DNA of 64,000 nt from assembly GCA_038231275.1 (NCBI GenBank), contig JBBRLQ010000031.1:25611-89610 (forward strand), given 5' to 3'. This DNA comes from Polyangiales bacterium. Lineage in GTDB: Bacteria > Myxococcota_A > Polyangia > Polyangiales > Polyangiaceae. Shown piece by piece: positions 24,805 to 31,622 of this stretch. Position 1 is the first letter of the stretch. Each line of letters opens with the position of its first letter. The notes beneath the pieces were generated by a model. It was given only the letters and a program-made list of their open reading frames with translations. It was not told the DNA's origin and ran no database searches. The position numbers and the translations under genes were made by a program.

Positions 24805-25560
24805 CTAGAACCGCTCTTTCGGCTCCTCTTTGCTCAACACCTGCACGTTCGGCAGAACCTCTTTCGCGAACCGGTCGCGCACGTCTTTCGCGCGGGGCTC
24901 GTCGTCGCGCGAGGGGATCGCGACGCCCACGACAAGGCACGCCTCCTTCCCCCATACCGGGTAGGTTCCATACGCCGCCGCGTACGACTCACGCGACGCC
25001 ATGGTGGCCGTCCTCGCCATCACGGGATCGATGTCGATCGGCACCGGCGCGATCTTCGCGCCCCCGGGCACCTTGTTCCACATGACCGCGACCGGCGCGT
25101 CGTGCTTCAGCTCGACGTCGAACGCTTCGAGCATCGGCGTCGCCAGCACCTCGAAGCTCTTCGCGCACGCGCCCTGTACGCTGTTGTCCTCCACGTGCGT
25201 GATGAACGCCGCGACGATCGCGTGATGATCCTTGCCGTAGCGGAAGCCCACGAGGCTCGGCACGCCCCAGAACCGAACGCGCATCCAATGCTCCGCGTCC
25301 GGGAGCGGCACGCGAATGCTGTTCTGCTTGTCGGTGCGGCCGTCGCTCACGCCGATCTTGAGCTGCTCAAGCGCCGCCGAGTGCTCGCTCCCGCCCTTGC
25401 CCTTGTCGCCGTTCGCGGTCGACCCGTCGTCCTTCGGAGGCGGCGCGGCCATGACCACGCGCAGCGGTTGCGTGGACGAGCTGCACCCGACCGCCGCGAG
25501 CGCCGCGAGCACCGCCGGAAAAAAAGCAATCGTTGCGGCGGCTCGCGTCATCTCCTTCAT
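24805..25560 (-). CDS. Hypothetical lipoprotein
   Basis: AVGC lipobox; start 25560 or 25551. Confidence 0.7.
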
Positions 25561-25669
25561 CTTGGACGAAACACCGCCCCGGCGCATTCCAATCTTGGCG
25601 ACAAGTTGGCGGCCTGGGGTGCGTTCGGGGCGATTTTGCGGTAAAGCCGTGGCTCAGGAAAACCCCATC

Positions 25670-27466
<1,797 letters not shown>

Positions 27467-27501
27467 CGCGCCTGTCGAAATCGCGTTAGCCTAGCGCGTC
27501 G

Positions 27502-29499
27502 ATGGCCACTGCTGCCCGTCCTTCCGGGTCCGACGCGCGTCTTCTCTCGGCGCTCGAGCGGGCGTTCGCGAAGCACGCAGGCGCCGATGGGGTCATCGAC
27601 GTCGCCGAGCTGAAGAGGGCGCTGGGGCTACGGAGCGAGTACCTGGCGCGGCGCGTCTTGACGGCGTTCGATCTCGACGGCGACGGCGTCATCAGGAAGG
27701 ACGAGTTCCTCGAGGGCGTGCGCAAGCTTTGCCTCGGGAGCGACACCGAGAAGCTCATGTTCGCGTTTCGTCTCCATGACCACGACGGGGACGGGACGCT
27801 GAGCCGTGACGAGCTCTTTCGCATGATCGCGATCGGGCTCGCCGAGAACGACGTGGCCGAGCGCGCGACGCAGCCGCCCGACGCGCTCGCCAAGGCGCTC
27901 TTCAACATGGCGGACACGAACAAGGACGGGAAGATCTCGTTCGAGGAGTTCGAGGCCGTCGTACGGCGGCGGCCGGCGCTGCTCGAGAAGATGACGCGCA
28001 GCGAGGCGGTGTGGATCGCACCGAACGAGGATCTGCTCGTCTGGCTCGACCCGCACCAGGCGCGCGAATCGCGGTTCTCTCGCCTGCTCGAGAACGGGTG
28101 GGCGCCGGTCGTCCTCTTGGTCCTCTGGGCGGCCGTCAACGTCGGCCTCTTCGTGAACGCGATGATTCGCGGCGCGCACGACGGCGCGAACCCCATCAAC
28201 CAGGCCGGCCGCGCGCTCGGCGCGTGCATCAACTTCGACGGCGCGCTCCTCCTCTTCCCGGTGATGCGTCGCCTCCTCACCTGGGTGCGCTCGACCTGGC
28301 TCGGCCGCGCGATCCCGGTCGACGAGGCGATCACGTTCCACCGCATCGTCGGGCACACGCTGGTGGCGCTCGGCGTCGCGCACGGCACTGCGCTCTTGGT
28401 GAGCTACGGAATCGGACACCGGAGCGGCTCTGTCGAGCACCTCCTCTTCGTCACCGAGCGCGGGCTCACCGGCGTCGGGCTCCTGATCGTCATCTTCGTG
28501 ATGTGGGTCTTCGCGCTCGCGCTCGTGCGCAGATCGGCCAAATTCGAGCTCTTTTACTTCACGCACCTCCTCTACGTGGTGTGGTTCGCCCTCGCGATCG
28601 CGCACGCGCCGCAGTTTCTGTTCTGGGCCGGCGTGCCGCTGCTCGGCTTCGTCATCGAGCAGATCTTGCGCCTCGCGCGGCGCGGAAAGAAGACGGTCGT
28701 TGCCGGCGCGCAGGCGCTGCGGTCCGGCGTGACGCGCCTCGAGCTGTCCAAGCCGAAGGGCTTCGCGCACCGGGCCGGCGACTATGTCTTTCTCCGCATC
28801 CCCGAGATCGCCAAGCACGAATGGCATCCGTTCACCGTGTCGAGCGCGCCGGAGAACGAGACGCTCACGGTCCACGTCCGCACGCTCGGCAACTGGACGA
28901 CCGCGCTTCGGACCCGCGTAGAGCGCGACGAGGCGACGCCCGGTGGAGCGCAGCTCGTCGCGTTCGTCGACGGCCCCTACGGTTCGCCGAGCGCGCACAT
29001 CGAGCGGTCGCGCCACGCGGTCTTCATCGGCGCGGGCATCGGCGTGACGCCGTTCGCCGCGGTGCTCGAGAGCCTCGTGCGCCGCGAGACGAGCGCGCAC
29101 CCCTCGAAGCTCGAGAAGGTGCATTTCTTTTGGCTCAACAAGGACCAATATTCGTTCGAGTGGTTCGCCTCGCTCTTGAAGGAGCTCGAGAAAATCGACG
29201 AGAAGGCGCTCCTCGACATCCACCTCTGCATGACCGCGGGCCGCACCGGCGCCACGGCGCTCGCCCTCGAGGTCGCGCGCGAGATCCTCCACGCGTCGGG
29301 GCGCAGCGACATCATCACCGGCCTCCGAACGCACACTCACATGGGCCACCCCGACTGGGAGAAGATGCTCGGCGCGATCAAAGTGCAGCACGCGCCGAAC
29401 AAGGTGGACGTGTACTTCTGCGGCCCCGTCGGGCTCGCCAACAAGATCCGCGTCGTGAGCCAGCACCTCGGCATGAGCTTCCGCCGGGAGCAGTTCTGA
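27502..29499 (+). CDS. EF-hand NADPH oxidase (NOX5-like): 4 EF hands, 6-TM bis-heme domain, FAD and NADPH domains
   Basis: EF loops AGADGVIDVAE, DLDGDGVIRKDE, DHDGDGTLSRDE, DTNKDGKISFEE; His280/294/355/368; HPFTVSS, DGPYG, GAGIGVTPF, YFCGP, C-terminal REQF. Confidence 0.9.
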   Translation: MATAARPSGSDARLLSALERAFAKHAGADGVIDVAELKRALGLRSEYLARRVLTAFDLDGDGVIRKDEFLEGVRKLCLGSDTEKLMFAFRLHDHDGDGTLSRDELFRMIAIGLAENDVAERATQPPDALAKALFNMADTNKDGKISFEEFEAVVRRRPALLEKMTRSEAVWIAPNEDLLVWLDPHQARESRFSRLLENGWAPVVLLVLWAAVNVGLFVNAMIRGAHDGANPINQAGRALGACINFDGALLLFPVMRRLLTWVRSTWLGRAIPVDEAITFHRIVGHTLVALGVAHGTALLVSYGIGHRSGSVEHLLFVTERGLTGVGLLIVIFVMWVFALALVRRSAKFELFYFTHLLYVVWFALAIAHAPQFLFWAGVPLLGFVIEQILRLARRGKKTVVAGAQALRSGVTRLELSKPKGFAHRAGDYVFLRIPEIAKHEWHPFTVSSAPENETLTVHVRTLGNWTTALRTRVERDEATPGGAQLVAFVDGPYGSPSAHIERSRHAVFIGAGIGVTPFAAVLESLVRRETSAHPSKLEKVHFFWLNKDQYSFEWFASLLKELEKIDEKALLDIHLCMTAGRTGATALALEVAREILHASGRSDIITGLRTHTHMGHPDWEKMLGAIKVQHAPNKVDVYFCGPVGLANKIRVVSQHLGMSFRREQF

Positions 29500-30158
29500 T
29501 GCGTGTGCGCGCGCTCGAGATCGTGCTCGGCCTGACGGTGCTCTTCGGCGCGGCGAGCGCGGGGTGCCAGGGCACGGTCGTCGCCGCTGCCGATGGGGAC
29601 GGCGGCACGAAGGCCATGGGGCCTTCGTGCGCGAGCTGCCACATGGCCGACTACCTCCAGGTGAGGACGCCGCCGCACGAGGGCGTGAAGCCGACCGCGT
29701 GCGCCGTGTGCCATACGCAGACCGGCTGGCATCCTTCTGTGCTCGATCACCCGTGGCCGCTCACCGGCAAGCACGAGAAGACCGACTGCTTTCTCTGCCA
29801 CAAGGACAAGCCGCCGGTCTTCAAGGGGACGAAGAAGGCCTGCTACGCGTGCCACGCCGCCGAGTACGACAAGCCACCGTTCGCCGATCACATGCTCTTC
29901 CAGAAGGCGTGCGAGGAGTGCCACACGACGACGGACTGGAAGACGCTCGTGCCGCACCCGATCTGGCCGCCGGAGCCGGCGAAGGAAGAGGACGCGGGCG
30001 CGCAGCACGACGCCGGCCACGCCGAGCCGCACGACGCCGGCGCGGGGGTCAAGCCGAAGCCAAAGCCGCCGCCGCCCAAGCCGACGGGCTCACCGACGAC
30101 GCCGCCAACGGGCAAGCCGCCGGACGTGACGACCGGCGGGAGTCGGCACGGTCGGTAG
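29499..30158 (+). CDS. Pentaheme cytochrome c lipoprotein
   Basis: ATG overlaps NOX stop (TGATG); leader ending SAGC; CASCH, CAVCH, CFLCH, CYACH, CEECH; Pro-rich tail. Confidence 0.88.
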   Translation: MRVRALEIVLGLTVLFGAASAGCQGTVVAAADGDGGTKAMGPSCASCHMADYLQVRTPPHEGVKPTACAVCHTQTGWHPSVLDHPWPLTGKHEKTDCFLCHKDKPPVFKGTKKACYACHAAEYDKPPFADHMLFQKACEECHTTTDWKTLVPHPIWPPEPAKEEDAGAQHDAGHAEPHDAGAGVKPKPKPPPPKPTGSPTTPPTGKPPDVTTGGSRHGR

Positions 30159-30167
30159 CGCGTTCGA

Positions 30168-30389
30168 TCACGCCGCGCGCTTGATGCAGCAAGCCCAGCG
30201 CATGCCGTCCTGCGACGTGAAGTCGACGTGCCTGTCCGTGTCGTAATACGGCACGATGTGGAGGCGGCCCGGGCGCGGAAGGAAGGGGACCTCGATGCCA
30301 AGCATGGAGCCGGGGACACCGACCAGGACCGGCGGGATGACCTGCTCGGCCAGCTCGTTGCGCATCCAAAAGTGCCTGAGCATCATCAT
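30168..30389 (-). CDS. Small hypothetical protein (73 aa)
   Basis: MMMLRHFW...WACCIKRAA; fills the gap with plausible codon usage. Confidence 0.5.
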   Translation of the reverse strand: MMMLRHFWMRNELAEQVIPPVLVGVPGSMLGIEVPFLPRPGRLHIVPYYDTDRHVDFTSQDGMRWACCIKRAA

Positions 30390-30489
30390 GGGCGACTGAC
30401 GCCACCCGACCGACGTTGTCGCACCGAAAAACGACGCGATTGAGACTCCGCGGAGGCGCGGCGAGAACCCGCGTCTTTCGGGGCAGTTG

Positions 30490-30984
30490 CTAGCGTTTGC
30501 TCCGCGCAGCTGCCTTCTTCGGCGCGGGCTCATTGGCCGCGGCCTTCTTGGGGGCCGGCTTCTTCTTTGGCGCGGCGGCCACCTTCGCCGGGGCCGCGAT
30601 CGCGCGCTTCACGGTTGGCTTCGCCGCCTCGACGCGCGCCGGGCCCTTCTTCGACGCGGTTTGCGCGAGGGCGTGCGCTCTTCGGACCCAGGCGCCGAGG
30701 CGCAGGCCGTCGCCGTGCATCACGGCGGGCAAGAGCACCCAGTGGCTCATCGTCATGGTTCCGGCGACCCACGGCGACGCGCCCGGCATTTTCATCGCCT
30801 CCGAGTAGGCGATCTCGTTCGGCAGGCGGACGCCGATGCGCCCGAGCTTCCACACGAGGCCGAAGATGTTCCCGCTGGCGAAGAGGCCATCGCACCCGAA
30901 CATGCGTTTCTTGGACACCCCCGCGAGCCCATTGGCCGCGGCGTCCAGCACCGCCGCGAGCTCGTCGAGCGAAACGTCTGCCAA
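30490..30984 (-). CDS. TfoX/Sxy N-terminal domain protein with Lys/Ala/Pro-rich tail
   Basis: KRMFG..GLF..G.IFG, MSHWVLLP, W..RA; tail PKKKPAPKKAAA. Confidence 0.75.
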   Translation of the reverse strand: MADVSLDELAAVLDAAANGLAGVSKKRMFGCDGLFASGNIFGLVWKLGRIGVRLPNEIAYSEAMKMPGASPWVAGTMTMSHWVLLPAVMHGDGLRLGAWVRRAHALAQTASKKGPARVEAAKPTVKRAIAAPAKVAAAPKKKPAPKKAAANEPAPKKAAARSKR

Positions 30985-31057
30985 GAGTCACCTCCGATTT
31001 CCGGGTGGAGGATACCTGCAACCAACGGAAATGCTTGTCGGTTCGCGGACACCGAAC

Positions 31058-31069
31058 TGAACGCGTTCA
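31058..31069. promoter_or_regulatory. Palindromic operator 1, TGAACGCGTTCA
   Basis: Perfect 12-bp palindrome in the divergent intergenic region. Confidence 0.6.
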
Positions 31070-31119
31070 AAATCGTGCTTGCCGGCGTGAATCACGACCC
31101 TATCCTCTTCGTCGGACGT

Positions 31120-31135
31120 TTTGAACACGTTCAAA
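31120..31135. promoter_or_regulatory. Palindromic operator 2, TTTGAACACGTTCAAA
   Basis: 7-bp arms with 2-bp spacer, same TGAAC-N2-GTTCA core; just before RBS AAGGAGG. Confidence 0.65.
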
Positions 31136-31154
31136 TAACCTCAAAGGAGGCCTC

Positions 31155-31622
31155 ATGGAACCGTCCACCTCGTTCCTCGTCCCCGTTTACGGCGCGTATG
31201 CCCTCGTCAGCGTCACGCTGACCATCTTCCTCGCGCGGACGCTCTTCAAGAACGGCGCGGTGTTCCTGGAGGACGTCTTCAAGGACACGCCGAAGATGGC
31301 CGACGCCGTGAACCACCTGCTCGTCGTCGGGTTCTACCTGCTGAACCTCGGCTACGCGTCCCTCATCATGAAGGCCAACGGCGGCACGACGGTCATCGCG
31401 GCGGTCGAGGTGCTCGCGTGGAAGCTCGGCGCGCTGCTCATGTCGCTCGGCGTCATGCACTTCCTGAACATGTACCTCTTCTACCGGATCCGTCGGCGCG
31501 CGCGGATCGCCGTTCTGCCGCCGCCCGTCGCGCCGCAGATGCGCCTGCCCAACGGGAGCGGTGGGCAACCGTTTCCGAACGCGGCCGAGCCCGTGCACGC
31601 GTGGCGTCCGCAGAGGGCGTGA
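31155..31622 (+). CDS. Conserved hypothetical membrane protein (3 TM)
   Basis: RBS AAGGAGG; L.KNG.VFL.DVF, A.AVNHLLVVGFYL.NLGY, LG.MH. Confidence 0.8.
   Translation: MEPSTSFLVPVYGAYALVSVTLTIFLARTLFKNGAVFLEDVFKDTPKMADAVNHLLVVGFYLLNLGYASLIMKANGGTTVIAAVEVLAWKLGALLMSLGVMHFLNMYLFYRIRRRARIAVLPPPVAPQMRLPNGSGGQPFPNAAEPVHAWRPQRA

Follow-up and report, generated by a model that had tools for sequence, protein, structure and literature searches.

A conserved NOX5-type oxidase and multiheme cytochrome gene pair in Polyangiales-type Myxococcota: a candidate Ca2+-controlled transmembrane electron exporter

Where would a bacterial NADPH oxidase send its electrons when its gene runs directly into that of a multiheme cytochrome? 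The question is raised by a two-gene pair on the forward strand (27502–30158) of the window, a 64,000-nucleotide stretch of a Polyangiales bacterium genome (contig JBBRLQ010000031.1), in which ORFs and translations confirm a NOX5-type gene followed by a cytochrome gene (Table 1). The TGA of the first (29497–29499) and the ATG of the second (29499–29501) have one A in common, and the sequence at the junction reads with the same letters, TGATG, that the original prediction had given. What bacterial NOX enzymes do for the cell is acknowledged to be unsettled: the 2024 SpNOX structure papers call the functions of SpNOX and csNOX5 unknown and allow for a physiological acceptor other than O2 (PMC11031084, PMC11564096). 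Judging from the sequences, we think it rather probable that here electrons would pass from NADPH through FAD and two b-hemes to a periplasmic cytochrome c, likely under the control of Ca2+.

Table 1. Features of the gene pair (positions in the window)
Feature	Position	Strand	Basis
NOX5-type flavocytochrome gene (665 aa, P0001)	27502..29499	+	ORF, Pfam domains, best PDB matches
Four EF-hand loops: residues 26-37 (non-canonical), 57-68, 93-104, 138-149 (canonical)	27577..27948	+	Pfam, loop sequences
Six-helix ferric-reductase-type membrane domain	28087..28686	+	alignment to 5o0t; ligands invariant
Arg237, equivalent of NOX2 Arg54 at outer-heme propionate, kept	28210..28212	+	alignment to NOX2 8gz3
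Leu298 and Ser301 at positions of O2-centre His (NOX2 His119) and Asn	28393..28404	+	alignments to csNOX5, human NOX5
Gly305-His306, periplasmic end of helix 3	28414..28419	+	invariant in A2 alignment; clade-specific
Cytoplasmic dehydrogenase domain	28705..29454	+	Pfam, csNOX5 DH alignment, clade comparison
FAD motif HPFT	28825-28836	+	within dehydrogenase domain
NADPH motif GAGIGVTPF	29029-29055	+	within dehydrogenase domain
TGATG stop/start overlap	29497..29501	+	sequence; orthologous junctions
Pentaheme c-type lipoprotein gene (219 aa, P0002)	29499..30158	+	translation, Pfam Cytochrome_C7, 42-sequence family alignment
Signal peptide and lipobox (..FGAASAG, then C23)	29499..29567	+	sequence
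Heme domain, CxxCH at residues 44-48, 68-72, 97-101, 115-119, 138-142	29628..29924	+	invariant columns
Pro/Lys/Thr-rich low-complexity linker	29952..30119	+	sequence
Conserved C-terminal tail PDVTTGGSRHGR	30120..30155	+	P208, S215 in at least 90% of 42 sequences

The product of the first gene is as originally described, a 665-residue protein with four EF-hand loops (the first degenerate), a bis-heme transmembrane domain and FAD/NADPH motifs; translation, Pfam and the loop sequences all agree on this. EF-hand_7 (1.3e-22), EF-hand_1 in three stretches, EF-hand_8 (residues 29–71), EF-hand_6 and EF-hand_5 exceed their curated Pfam cut-offs, as do Ferric_reduct (258–365), FAD_binding_8 (402–497) and NAD_binding_6 (507–651), with values for the dehydrogenase families of 7.7e-21 (PF08022) and 1.5e-23 (PF08030). 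Loops 2–4 are canonical (DLDGDGVIRKDE, DHDGDGTLSRDE and DTNKDGKISFEE), the first (AGADGVIDVAEL) is non-canonical, and the Ca-ligand positions are invariant across 14 paired orthologues. Among solved structures the best matches are human NOX5, at E 2.7e-116, and the dehydrogenase (5o0x) and transmembrane (5o0t) domains of the Cylindrospermum stagnale enzyme, csNOX5; the csNOX5 dehydrogenase domain matches at E 2.6e-73 and the transmembrane domain at E 2.5e-44, where a single 2-residue gap interrupts the 196 aligned residues. The heme-ligand histidines H280, H294, H355 and H368, on helices 3 and 5, align with the ligands of csNOX5, NOX5 and NOX2 and are invariant in the A2 alignment, and the inter-heme W361 is present. 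The helix-4 Thr-Gly signature, which separates NOX from metalloreductases (PMC3591440), is found as T323-G324 (T178-G179 in the 'ITG' of NOX2), G324 being invariant and T323 present in at least 90% of the A2 alignment. Three marks of the NOX5 subfamily are thus present: an EF-hand domain, a four-His ferric reductase domain (FRD) and a FAD/NADPH dehydrogenase. NCBIfam gave only sub-threshold matches, including an EF-hand likeness to XopAW far under the cut-off.

The O2 centre is another matter. The roles reported for its residues concern R54 and H119 of NOX2 and the Asn three residues further on (PMC9568551, PMC11031084, PMC3591440), and the His has been used to distinguish ROS-making NOX from metalloreductases (PMC3591440). 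Of the Arg, His and Asn that make up a NOX5 O2 centre, the window protein retains only Arg237, a position occupied in 35 paired sequences by R (32), N (2) or H (1). Helix 3 is readable in 35 paired NOX5, and in every one of them the place of the His is taken by another residue, hydrophobic or otherwise; the Asn is also missing, both from the window protein and from the 29 distinct paired sequences checked (29/29). For the wider family, a comparison of its best 150 representatives gives Arg/His/Asn as the majority state (65 complete). The periplasmic Gly-His at 305–306 is present in 35/35 paired NOX5, and H306 is one of only five positions that are conserved in the paired clade and missing from canonical NOX5. 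Three of these five (G236, A238 and H306) lie on the outer-heme face, together with the lost positions 298 and 301. In principle, a site for O2 could be restored by the new Gly-His motif. The 25 NOX5 in which the His is kept all lack the cytochrome; for 21 of them the sequence extends 1362 nt or more downstream. On the NOX tree, a single change (SH-aLRT 72) explains the paired clade, so the link between His loss and cytochrome represents one historical event, not 35 independent ones, and is not replicated evidence. Since SpNOX lacks the His and the Arg yet reduces O2 in vitro (PMC11564096), loss of the His at position 298 is no proof of lost O2 reduction.

The second gene encodes the 219-residue lipoprotein with five CxxCH motifs that had been proposed, and its further histidines, put originally at five or more, number six in the heme domain (H60, H78, H84, H92, H131 and H153). 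Its signal peptide (MRVR..LFGAASAG) runs to the lipobox Cys23, which is conserved in 16 of 17 orthologous loci and in at least 90% of 42 family sequences. The CxxCH motifs are kept in at least 41 of the 42 family members, and most heme-motif columns are invariant. Cytochrome_C7 (PF14522) matches the protein at 28.3 bits against a cut-off of 24.8, and all Pfam matches of the NOX5 partner are to c-type cytochrome families. In the 42-sequence alignment the conserved distal His are those at 60, 84, 92 and 129/131, three of them invariant, which makes four for five hemes; candidates for the fifth ligand vary (M49 in 22/42, H78 in 26/42). Because of this shortfall, one heme of the five might be catalytic and not a wire.

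Flexible linkers flank the ~110-residue heme domain on both sides, and the one after heme 5 is 67–128 residues long in 28 of 29 pentaheme orthologues (16 in the remaining one, L070). The strict C-terminal tail motif is found in 24 of the 29 pentahemes. A general sorting tag is ruled out for this tail, which occurs just once when all 48,380 frames of the genome around the window are considered. Among the 28 of 38 cytochromes with a recognised lipobox, the lipid Cys is followed by G, S, Q, A, E, T, R, D or H, a variety from which the anchoring membrane is not readable; with an outer-membrane anchor, docking on NOX5 would rely on the flexible linkers. The family is rare (31 clusters in 5.8 billion). 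An AlphaFold2 model of the cytochrome built on the 42 sequences (mean pLDDT 56.7, pTM 0.31) was too poor for a fold search, and a profile search of PDB sequences gave weak matches to HmcA (1z1n, E 0.0034), MtrC (E 0.006) and NrfB (E 0.056). This search and an ESM Atlas look-up together returned only generic c7/class III, HmcA and MtrC likeness and chance zinc-finger matches. A cytochrome c maturation family is found in the window's genome. The genome also carries large multiheme clusters, and 10-, 14- and 21-heme cytochromes are present.

How firmly the two genes belong together can be judged from a survey of 70 distinct NOX5-like gene 3′ ends from Myxococcota, cyanobacteria and other phyla. 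A cytochrome gene lies directly downstream on the same strand in 38 of them (29 pentaheme, nine octaheme), a recurrence beyond chance. The original prediction had staked itself on finding the pairing in related genomes; within the paired clade the cytochrome comes next at 38/38 distinct loci with sequence past the NOX stop, two of which have the cytochrome cut by a contig end. At each of 16 junctions examined, the cytochrome start overlaps the NOX stop or sits at most 16 nt away. Scanning in reverse from the cytochrome, with a 12-sequence alignment (A3), places NOX5 directly upstream at 27 of 33 loci; the six exceptions are L038, where the contig begins at the cytochrome, L066, which has no NOX and is the sole genome locus where a single-module cytochrome had no NOX5 upstream, and four giant cytochromes of several modules. 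When flanking ORFs were clustered all against all, no third conserved neighbour emerged (at most four loci share one), and of the related loci only those of the two closest relatives share the window's own neighbours (PEPCK, TfoX, DCC1, TetR and EamA). NOX identity drops to about 52%–55% and all other neighbours change, yet the pair persists, and one MAG has two distinct pairs (L070 and L072). A promoter and terminator scan of 25000–31200, uninformative for a high-GC host, found no promoter-like sites and three terminator-like sites against 4.2 expected from shuffles. In Polyangiales-type Myxococcota the two genes form a conserved, self-contained and translationally coupled module.

In the mechanism that we propose, the NOX5-type protein would take electrons from cytoplasmic NADPH via FAD and pass them across the inner membrane through two stacked b-hemes. 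The outer heme would then hand them to the lipid-anchored penta- or octaheme cytochrome in place of O2, the cytochrome docking at the exposed outer-heme face. The module would thus be an NADPH:cytochrome c transmembrane electron exporter, with cytoplasmic Ca2+ probably throwing the switch via the EF-hand domain. Candidate final acceptors are further multiheme cytochromes of the host, reductases in the periplasm, metals, or O2 reacting at the cytochrome. Nothing is missing from the electron path, which comprises four heme His, W361, HPFT and the NADPH motif; the cytochrome belongs to the c7/class III electron-transfer type, and the periplasmic loops are short, as in csNOX5, whose outer heme has been described as freely accessible (PMC11031084). 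We infer docking, the direction and directness of electron flow, and Ca2+ control from sequence. A complex prediction of the NOX5 transmembrane domain, four hemes and the mature cytochrome, with separate alignments and without controls, gave an ipSAE of 0.00 in two runs, which counts neither for nor against docking. A more detailed version, which we regard as doubtful, has a Ca2+-triggered, NADPH-driven export device in which the TxGxSRR tail would dock on a partner, His306 may ligate a c-heme, and electrons would cross the periplasm to outer acceptors. The tether in that version would be the lipid anchor plus the two flexible linkers, His306 would supply the missing sixth ligand of the c-heme, and the outer acceptors might include 10-, 14- and 21-heme cytochromes, minerals or prey.

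As to the switch, csNOX5 is reported to need two Asp, D611 and D631, for activation by Ca2+, and its D611H mutant is not Ca2+-activated (PMC7317449). The corresponding residues lie in the EF-binding region of the window's dehydrogenase domain, where D631 is conserved as D603 and D611 is replaced by G583. The D611-equivalent position is G in 20 and D in five of 25 paired NOX5, and D in nine of 12 canonical NOX5. Conservation of the EF loops makes Ca2+ gating of the paired NOX5 likely. Gly583 at the Asp611 position counts against Ca2+ control of the window protein.

The original prediction had given the cytochrome two possible roles, taking electrons from the outer heme or managing superoxide. 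The first is favoured over the second because neither the His nor the Asn of the O2 centre survives in the paired clade. It is nonetheless conceivable, if unlikely, that the NOX5 still makes periplasmic superoxide from O2 and that the cytochrome is a downstream superoxide-oxidising sink, relay or scavenger, whose reduction SOD would then suppress: the protein belongs to the NOX5 family, the Arg at the outer-heme propionate is mostly kept (32/35), SpNOX is reported to reduce O2 without the canonical His and Arg (PMC11564096), and the shortage of conserved distal His (four for five hemes) could leave one heme reactive. Against this, the His of ROS-making NOX (PMC3591440) is replaced in 35/35 paired proteins and the adjacent Asn is lost too, the cytochrome is missing beside all 25 His-keeping relatives, and a scavenger would have no need of strict translational coupling to one oxidase clade. 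The cytochrome could also serve above all in structure or maturation, capping the outer heme in a manner comparable to p22phox or DUOXA of eukaryotic NOX, and stabilise or tune the oxidase without being its main sink. We consider this improbable: five to eight covalent hemes are a high cost for structure alone, across 42 sequences there is no change in the heme motifs or in three of the distal His, and canonical bacterial NOX5 do without such a partner (0/25), even though strict co-occurrence and coupling speak for it and the clade-specific His306 and family-specific C-terminal tail suggest a dedicated protein–protein interface.

Electrons might instead run the other way, from a reduced periplasmic cytochrome through the b-hemes and FAD to NADP+ or a cytoplasmic acceptor. 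Reduction of NADP+ by c-type hemes would, on established redox chemistry, be uphill without an energy input, and all characterised NOX and FRD enzymes are reported to move electrons outward (PMC11031084); thus, although the FRD scaffold is reversible in principle and the large multiheme clusters of the genome are possible donors, we hold this to be very improbable. That the genes are merely co-inherited, their adjacency having no functional meaning, would agree with the single origin on the tree. This is the hardest to credit, as the pair has been kept while NOX identity fell as noted and all other neighbours changed, start and stop codons overlap, in one MAG the two genes have been duplicated together, the cytochrome is of a rare family, and L066 is alone among the genome loci in having a single-module cytochrome without an upstream NOX5.

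Electron export to the cytochrome, the reading we prefer, can be set against known systems. With human NOX5 and csNOX5 the window protein shares the order of domains (EF-hands, six-helix bis-heme domain, FAD/NADPH dehydrogenase), the heme ligands, the inter-heme Trp, the helix-4 Thr-Gly and one regulatory Asp. It differs from them in having Leu298/Ser301 for His/Asn, 'GRA' for 'ARG' around the Arg, the clade-specific periplasmic Gly-His and a Gly at the csNOX5 Asp611 site, and its clade differs from canonical, His-keeping NOX5 (0/25) in always having the downstream multiheme cytochrome gene. MsrQ-MsrP (YedZ-YedY) is similar in that an FRD membrane protein with an exposed outer heme feeds an adjacently encoded periplasmic protein (PMC11031084, PMC11564096). 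However, MsrQ lacks both EF-hands and a fused NADPH dehydrogenase and is supplied with electrons by quinol or a flavin reductase, and MsrP is a molybdoenzyme, whereas the partner here matches cytochrome families only. With a cytochrome partner and a membrane protein that has its own dehydrogenase, the pair falls outside MsrPQ and would resemble it in working only.

SpNOX is likewise a bacterial NOX without canonical O2-centre residues, and direct reduction of cytochrome c under anoxia is reported for it (PMC11564096); its authors suggest that a protein acceptor may exist (PMC11564096, PMC11031084). SpNOX is a constitutively active enzyme from a Gram-positive source, without EF-hands or an identified partner, whereas here a candidate partner is genetically fixed. 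The ferric reductases of the FRE group also combine an FRD with FAD/NADPH domains, lack the NOX His119 signature and use non-O2 acceptors (PMC3591440), but the window protein lies inside the NOX5 radiation and has EF-hands and the helix-4 Thr-Gly, and its likely acceptor is a protein and not a free metal chelate. The cytochrome resembles the class III/c7 cytochromes, NrfB, MtrC and HmcA in its tightly spaced CxxCH hemes and His distal ligands; it differs from the multiheme conduits in lacking a close solved relative, in its flexible linkers and in a C-terminal tail of its own. The pair's neighbourhood contains neither a porin nor a quinol dehydrogenase partner. With no conserved neighbour besides the two genes, the pair is not an outer-membrane conduit of the Mtr/Pio type, in which a porin is clustered with periplasmic and surface decahemes.

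No published description of a NOX5–cytochrome pairing was found in the literature, nor did our search yield a dedicated cytochrome acceptor for NOX5, of which the original prediction had likewise known none. Among prokaryotes, the abstract of PMC7317449 names only cyanobacteria as having NOX5, and the pair extends NOX5 biology to Myxococcota. For the open question of what bacterial NOX do, the module offers a genetically fixed candidate acceptor. Loss of the O2-binding residues in the paired clade is a natural "experiment" on NOX, and the module would show how the NOX scaffold switches acceptor specificity among O2, metal and protein. For aerobic bacteria of soil and fresh water, it points to a route of electron transfer, periplasmic or extracellular, that is linked to NADPH and Ca2+. 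If the doubtful, more detailed version of the export device were true, the cytochrome would rank as the first protein to serve any NOX enzyme as its physiological acceptor, and in aerobic Myxococcota the module would tie Ca2+ signalling in the cytoplasm to redox output outside the cell.

The original prediction, a NOX5-type EF-hand NADPH oxidase translationally coupled to a pentaheme cytochrome c lipoprotein, is borne out in all its described elements and in their placement, as judged from the ORFs, Pfam and the junction sequence (table below). The closest solved relatives of the oxidase are human NOX5 (E 2.7e-116, full-length coverage) and both domains of Cylindrospermum stagnale NOX5 (csNOX5) for which crystal structures exist. 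The last base of its TGA is the first base of the cytochrome ATG. The cytochrome's signal peptide is basic and hydrophobic and runs to the lipobox Cys23; next come five CxxCH motifs in residues 44–142, a linker rich in Pro, Lys and Thr, and a short tail that is conserved. It matches Pfam Cytochrome_C7 (28.3 bits against a cut-off of 24.8), and sequence and feature searches place it in the c7/class III electron-transfer superfamily; the same searches returned no close solved relative.

Features of the NOX5–cytochrome pair and of related loci (window positions unless a locus is named)
Feature	Position	Strand	Basis
GTP-type PEP carboxykinase-like ORF	25316-27466	+	
NOX5-type ORF, 665 aa	27502-29499	+	ORF translation
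EF-hand pairs	residues ~29-71 and 83-154 of NOX5		Pfam, above curated cut-offs
Ferric_reduct	residues 258-365 of NOX5		Pfam, above curated cut-off
FAD_binding_8	residues 402-497 of NOX5		Pfam, above curated cut-off
NAD_binding_6	residues 507-651 of NOX5		Pfam, above curated cut-off
NOX5 stop TGA	29497-29499	+	
Cytochrome ORF, 219 aa	ATG 29499-29501, end 30158	+	sequence
Cytochrome C-terminal tail	30120-30155	+	
10-, 14- and 21-CxxCH cytochrome cluster, same genome	G000:C2:602000-611400 (L067:6115-15362)	-	
Canonical Polyangiaceae NOX5	L009:4001-5983	+	
MtrC/MtrF-like decaheme cytochrome	L009:341-4011	-	PF22113, E 8.4e-53
Third-clade NOX5	L011:2702-4666		
Third-clade NOX5	L034:1516-3489		

To assess conservation, we pooled three scans of one-genome-per-species contigs (queried with the NOX5 protein, the cytochrome alignment and an alignment of canonical bacterial NOX5) with one search of 401 phylum genomes, 8 of which gave a match. 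Collapsing duplicates by NOX C-terminus left 70 distinct NOX5-like gene ends. Of the 70, 38 have a cytochrome homologue directly 3' on the same strand (29 pentaheme, two of them cut by contig ends, and nine octaheme), and these we call paired. At all 16 junctions examined, the cytochrome start codon overlaps the NOX stop or lies at most 16 nt away; TGATG occurs seven times, the window included, and a TTG start overlapping TGA five times. When loci are taken from the cytochrome side, a NOX5 gene immediately precedes it in 27 of 33; the remaining six comprise a contig that starts at the cytochrome (L038), a locus without NOX but with other cytochromes near (L066), and four giant cytochromes built of module repeats. 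In one metagenome-assembled genome (MAG) the complete pair is present twice, as distinct copies (L070, L072). The cytochrome itself is of a rare family, represented at E <= 1e-3 by 31 clusters in 5.8 billion, all lacking an informative name.

The PEP carboxykinase, TfoX, DCC1 and TetR neighbours of the window pair were found again only in the two nearest relatives, and comparison of flanking genes across loci yielded no further gene common to more than four. A 35-nt gap free of terminator-like sites separates the PEP carboxykinase-like ORF from the NOX5 start; given the ORF's restriction to those relatives, any co-transcription with NOX5 would be genus-specific. The NOX5 coding sequence is broken into at least two frames in four loci (L030/L054/L082, L039, L052 and L055), the EF-hand domain for example lying in a frame of its own; the downstream cytochrome is intact. 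The breaks reflect either frameshifts or pseudogene formation, or misassembly of long-read MAGs.

Paired and canonical proteins differ at the site of O2 reduction. The putative O2-reducing centre of NOX2 has been described as Arg54, the outer-heme ligand His115 and His119 (PMC9568551), with the Asn three residues past His119 reported as also required (PMC11031084); His119 with Thr178-Gly179 has been proposed as a signature separating ROS-producing NOX from metalloreductases (PMC3591440). Pairwise alignments from the outer-heme ligand onward read HTGAHFLNY in csNOX5, HTVAHTVNF in human NOX5 and HGTALLVSY in the window protein, which has Leu298 in place of the His and Ser301 in place of the Asn and retains Arg237 and Thr323-Gly324. 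In every one of the 35 paired proteins with helix 3 available, the His position is occupied by L, F, V, Y, A, T or I, and a Gly-His, on the periplasmic end of that helix, lies at +11/+12 from the heme ligand. Conversely, none of 25 His-keeping NOX5, including cyanobacterial, spirochaete, alpha- and gammaproteobacterial and other Myxococcota sequences, has the cytochrome beside it (at least 1362 nt of downstream sequence in 21 of the 25), and among loci L068–L108 no ORF with at least three CxxCH lies within 3 kb of one. Across all loci, the paired and the His-keeping proteins separate completely. The family search gave 13,494 matches, and in its best 150 representatives Arg/His/Asn is the prevailing state, with 65 complete and seven partial. 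Only five positions are kept in the paired clade yet absent from canonical NOX5 (column comparison, 25 paired vs 12 canonical), and three of these (G236, A238 and H306) lie next to the two lost residues on the outer-heme face.

A maximum-likelihood tree of 29 full-length proteins places the paired state on one change (SH-aLRT 72), so the cytochrome gain and His loss count as one event and not as independent replicates; the state is retained down to ~52%–55% identity. The sister of the paired group is the canonical Polyangiaceae NOX5 of L009, which keeps Arg/His/Asn and has no downstream cytochrome. Divergent to it is an MtrC/MtrF-like decaheme gene with a collagen-like N-terminus, and a second neighbouring ORF has nine CxxCH; this arrangement was seen at one locus only. 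A small third clade (L011, L034, L105) has no resolved placement next to the paired clade (L011, L034). It has N, D or E for the outer-heme Arg and His or Arg at the His119 position, and occurs as a second copy in genomes also having the paired form (G165 and MAG BP_638). The L034 gene is convergent with a hybrid histidine kinase, and that of L011 follows a cNMP-binding pyridine-nucleotide-disulphide oxidoreductase.

Across 42 aligned cytochromes, each of the ten Cys and five proximal His in the CxxCH motifs is present in at least 41 sequences, and most of these columns do not vary. His60, His84 and His92 are invariant and a fourth distal His lies at 129 or 131. No fifth distal His or Met is conserved (Met49 in 22 of 42, His78 in 26 of 42), so the sixth ligand of one heme may be unusual or external. 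The heme domain (~110 residues) has low-complexity linkers on both sides, of 12–42 residues after the lipid Cys and of 67–128 after heme 5 in 28 of 29 pentahemes (16 in L070). After the Pro/Thr-rich linker, the extreme C-terminus follows the strict pattern P-D-V-T-x-G-x-S-R-R in 24 of 29 pentahemes; of the other five, three deviate slightly, one is cut short and L070 has no such tail. Among 48,380 frames of the genome to which the window belongs, the tail turns up once, so it is not a general sorting tag. The octahemes (L013, L029, L039, L042, L043, L048, L091, L092 and L098) have three extra CxxCH, in an extension that takes the linker's place, and a similar end (..TRGTRSRR). Those included in the tree form the earliest branches of the paired clade, so the octaheme may be the ancestral partner from which the pentaheme and its tail were derived. 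In L056, L061, L062 and L063 (Polyangiaceae, Planctomycetota), cytochromes of 490–715 aa carry 4–6 tandem copies of the heme module with no NOX5 near, which points to a reusable building block.

The electron path of the window NOX5 is intact (NADPH motif, HPFT, four heme ligands and inter-heme Trp361), and its periplasmic loops are as short as those of csNOX5 (one 2-residue gap over 196 residues), whose outer heme has been described as freely accessible and possibly serving acceptors other than O2 (PMC11031084). There are precedents for protein acceptors: MsrQ passes electrons to the periplasmic protein MsrP, and the Streptococcus pneumoniae enzyme SpNOX under anoxia reduces cytochrome c directly and faster than O2, its authors suggesting that there may be a protein acceptor (PMC11564096). 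Together these make outward transfer from NADPH to the tethered cytochrome the most likely function of the pair, judging by sequence and analogy; electrons would pass outward through NOX5, and O2 reduction would be lost or cut to a side reaction. It is possible instead that superoxide production continues and the cytochrome serves as a sink, since SpNOX, which also lacks the canonical centre, still reduces O2. A structural, cap-like role for the cytochrome, inward electron flow, and a meaningless linkage of the two genes all fit less well, and outward transfer to the cytochrome explains the combined pattern better than any of these rivals.

Ca2+ control of the paired NOX5 is likely, because EF loops 2–4 are canonical and their ligand positions invariant. 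The essential Asp631 of csNOX5 (PMC7317449) is kept as Asp603, whereas its Asp611 is replaced by Gly583; 20 of 25 paired proteins have Gly at this position and 9 of 12 canonical ones have Asp, so the activation contact may differ from that of csNOX5.

Genes for cytochrome c maturation are present in the window's own genome, which also contains, at another site, clustered cytochromes with 10, 14 and 21 CxxCH. These consist partly of modules resembling the pentaheme (40%–45% identity), lie with a membrane protein weakly matching DUF4405, and are possible downstream partners of the pentaheme.

In full-text searches, which cover few subscription journals, we found no published description of a NOX5 with a dedicated cytochrome or of NOX5 in Myxococcota. 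A 2017 survey of bacterial NOX treats NOX5-like genes only for cyanobacteria, and a term search of it gave no match to 'operon', 'genomic context' or 'neighbor' (PMC5676040). On these grounds, we regard the pair as a new variation on the FRD/NOX carriers: a transmembrane electron carrier whose acceptor site appears to have been re-tooled for a co-encoded multiheme protein.
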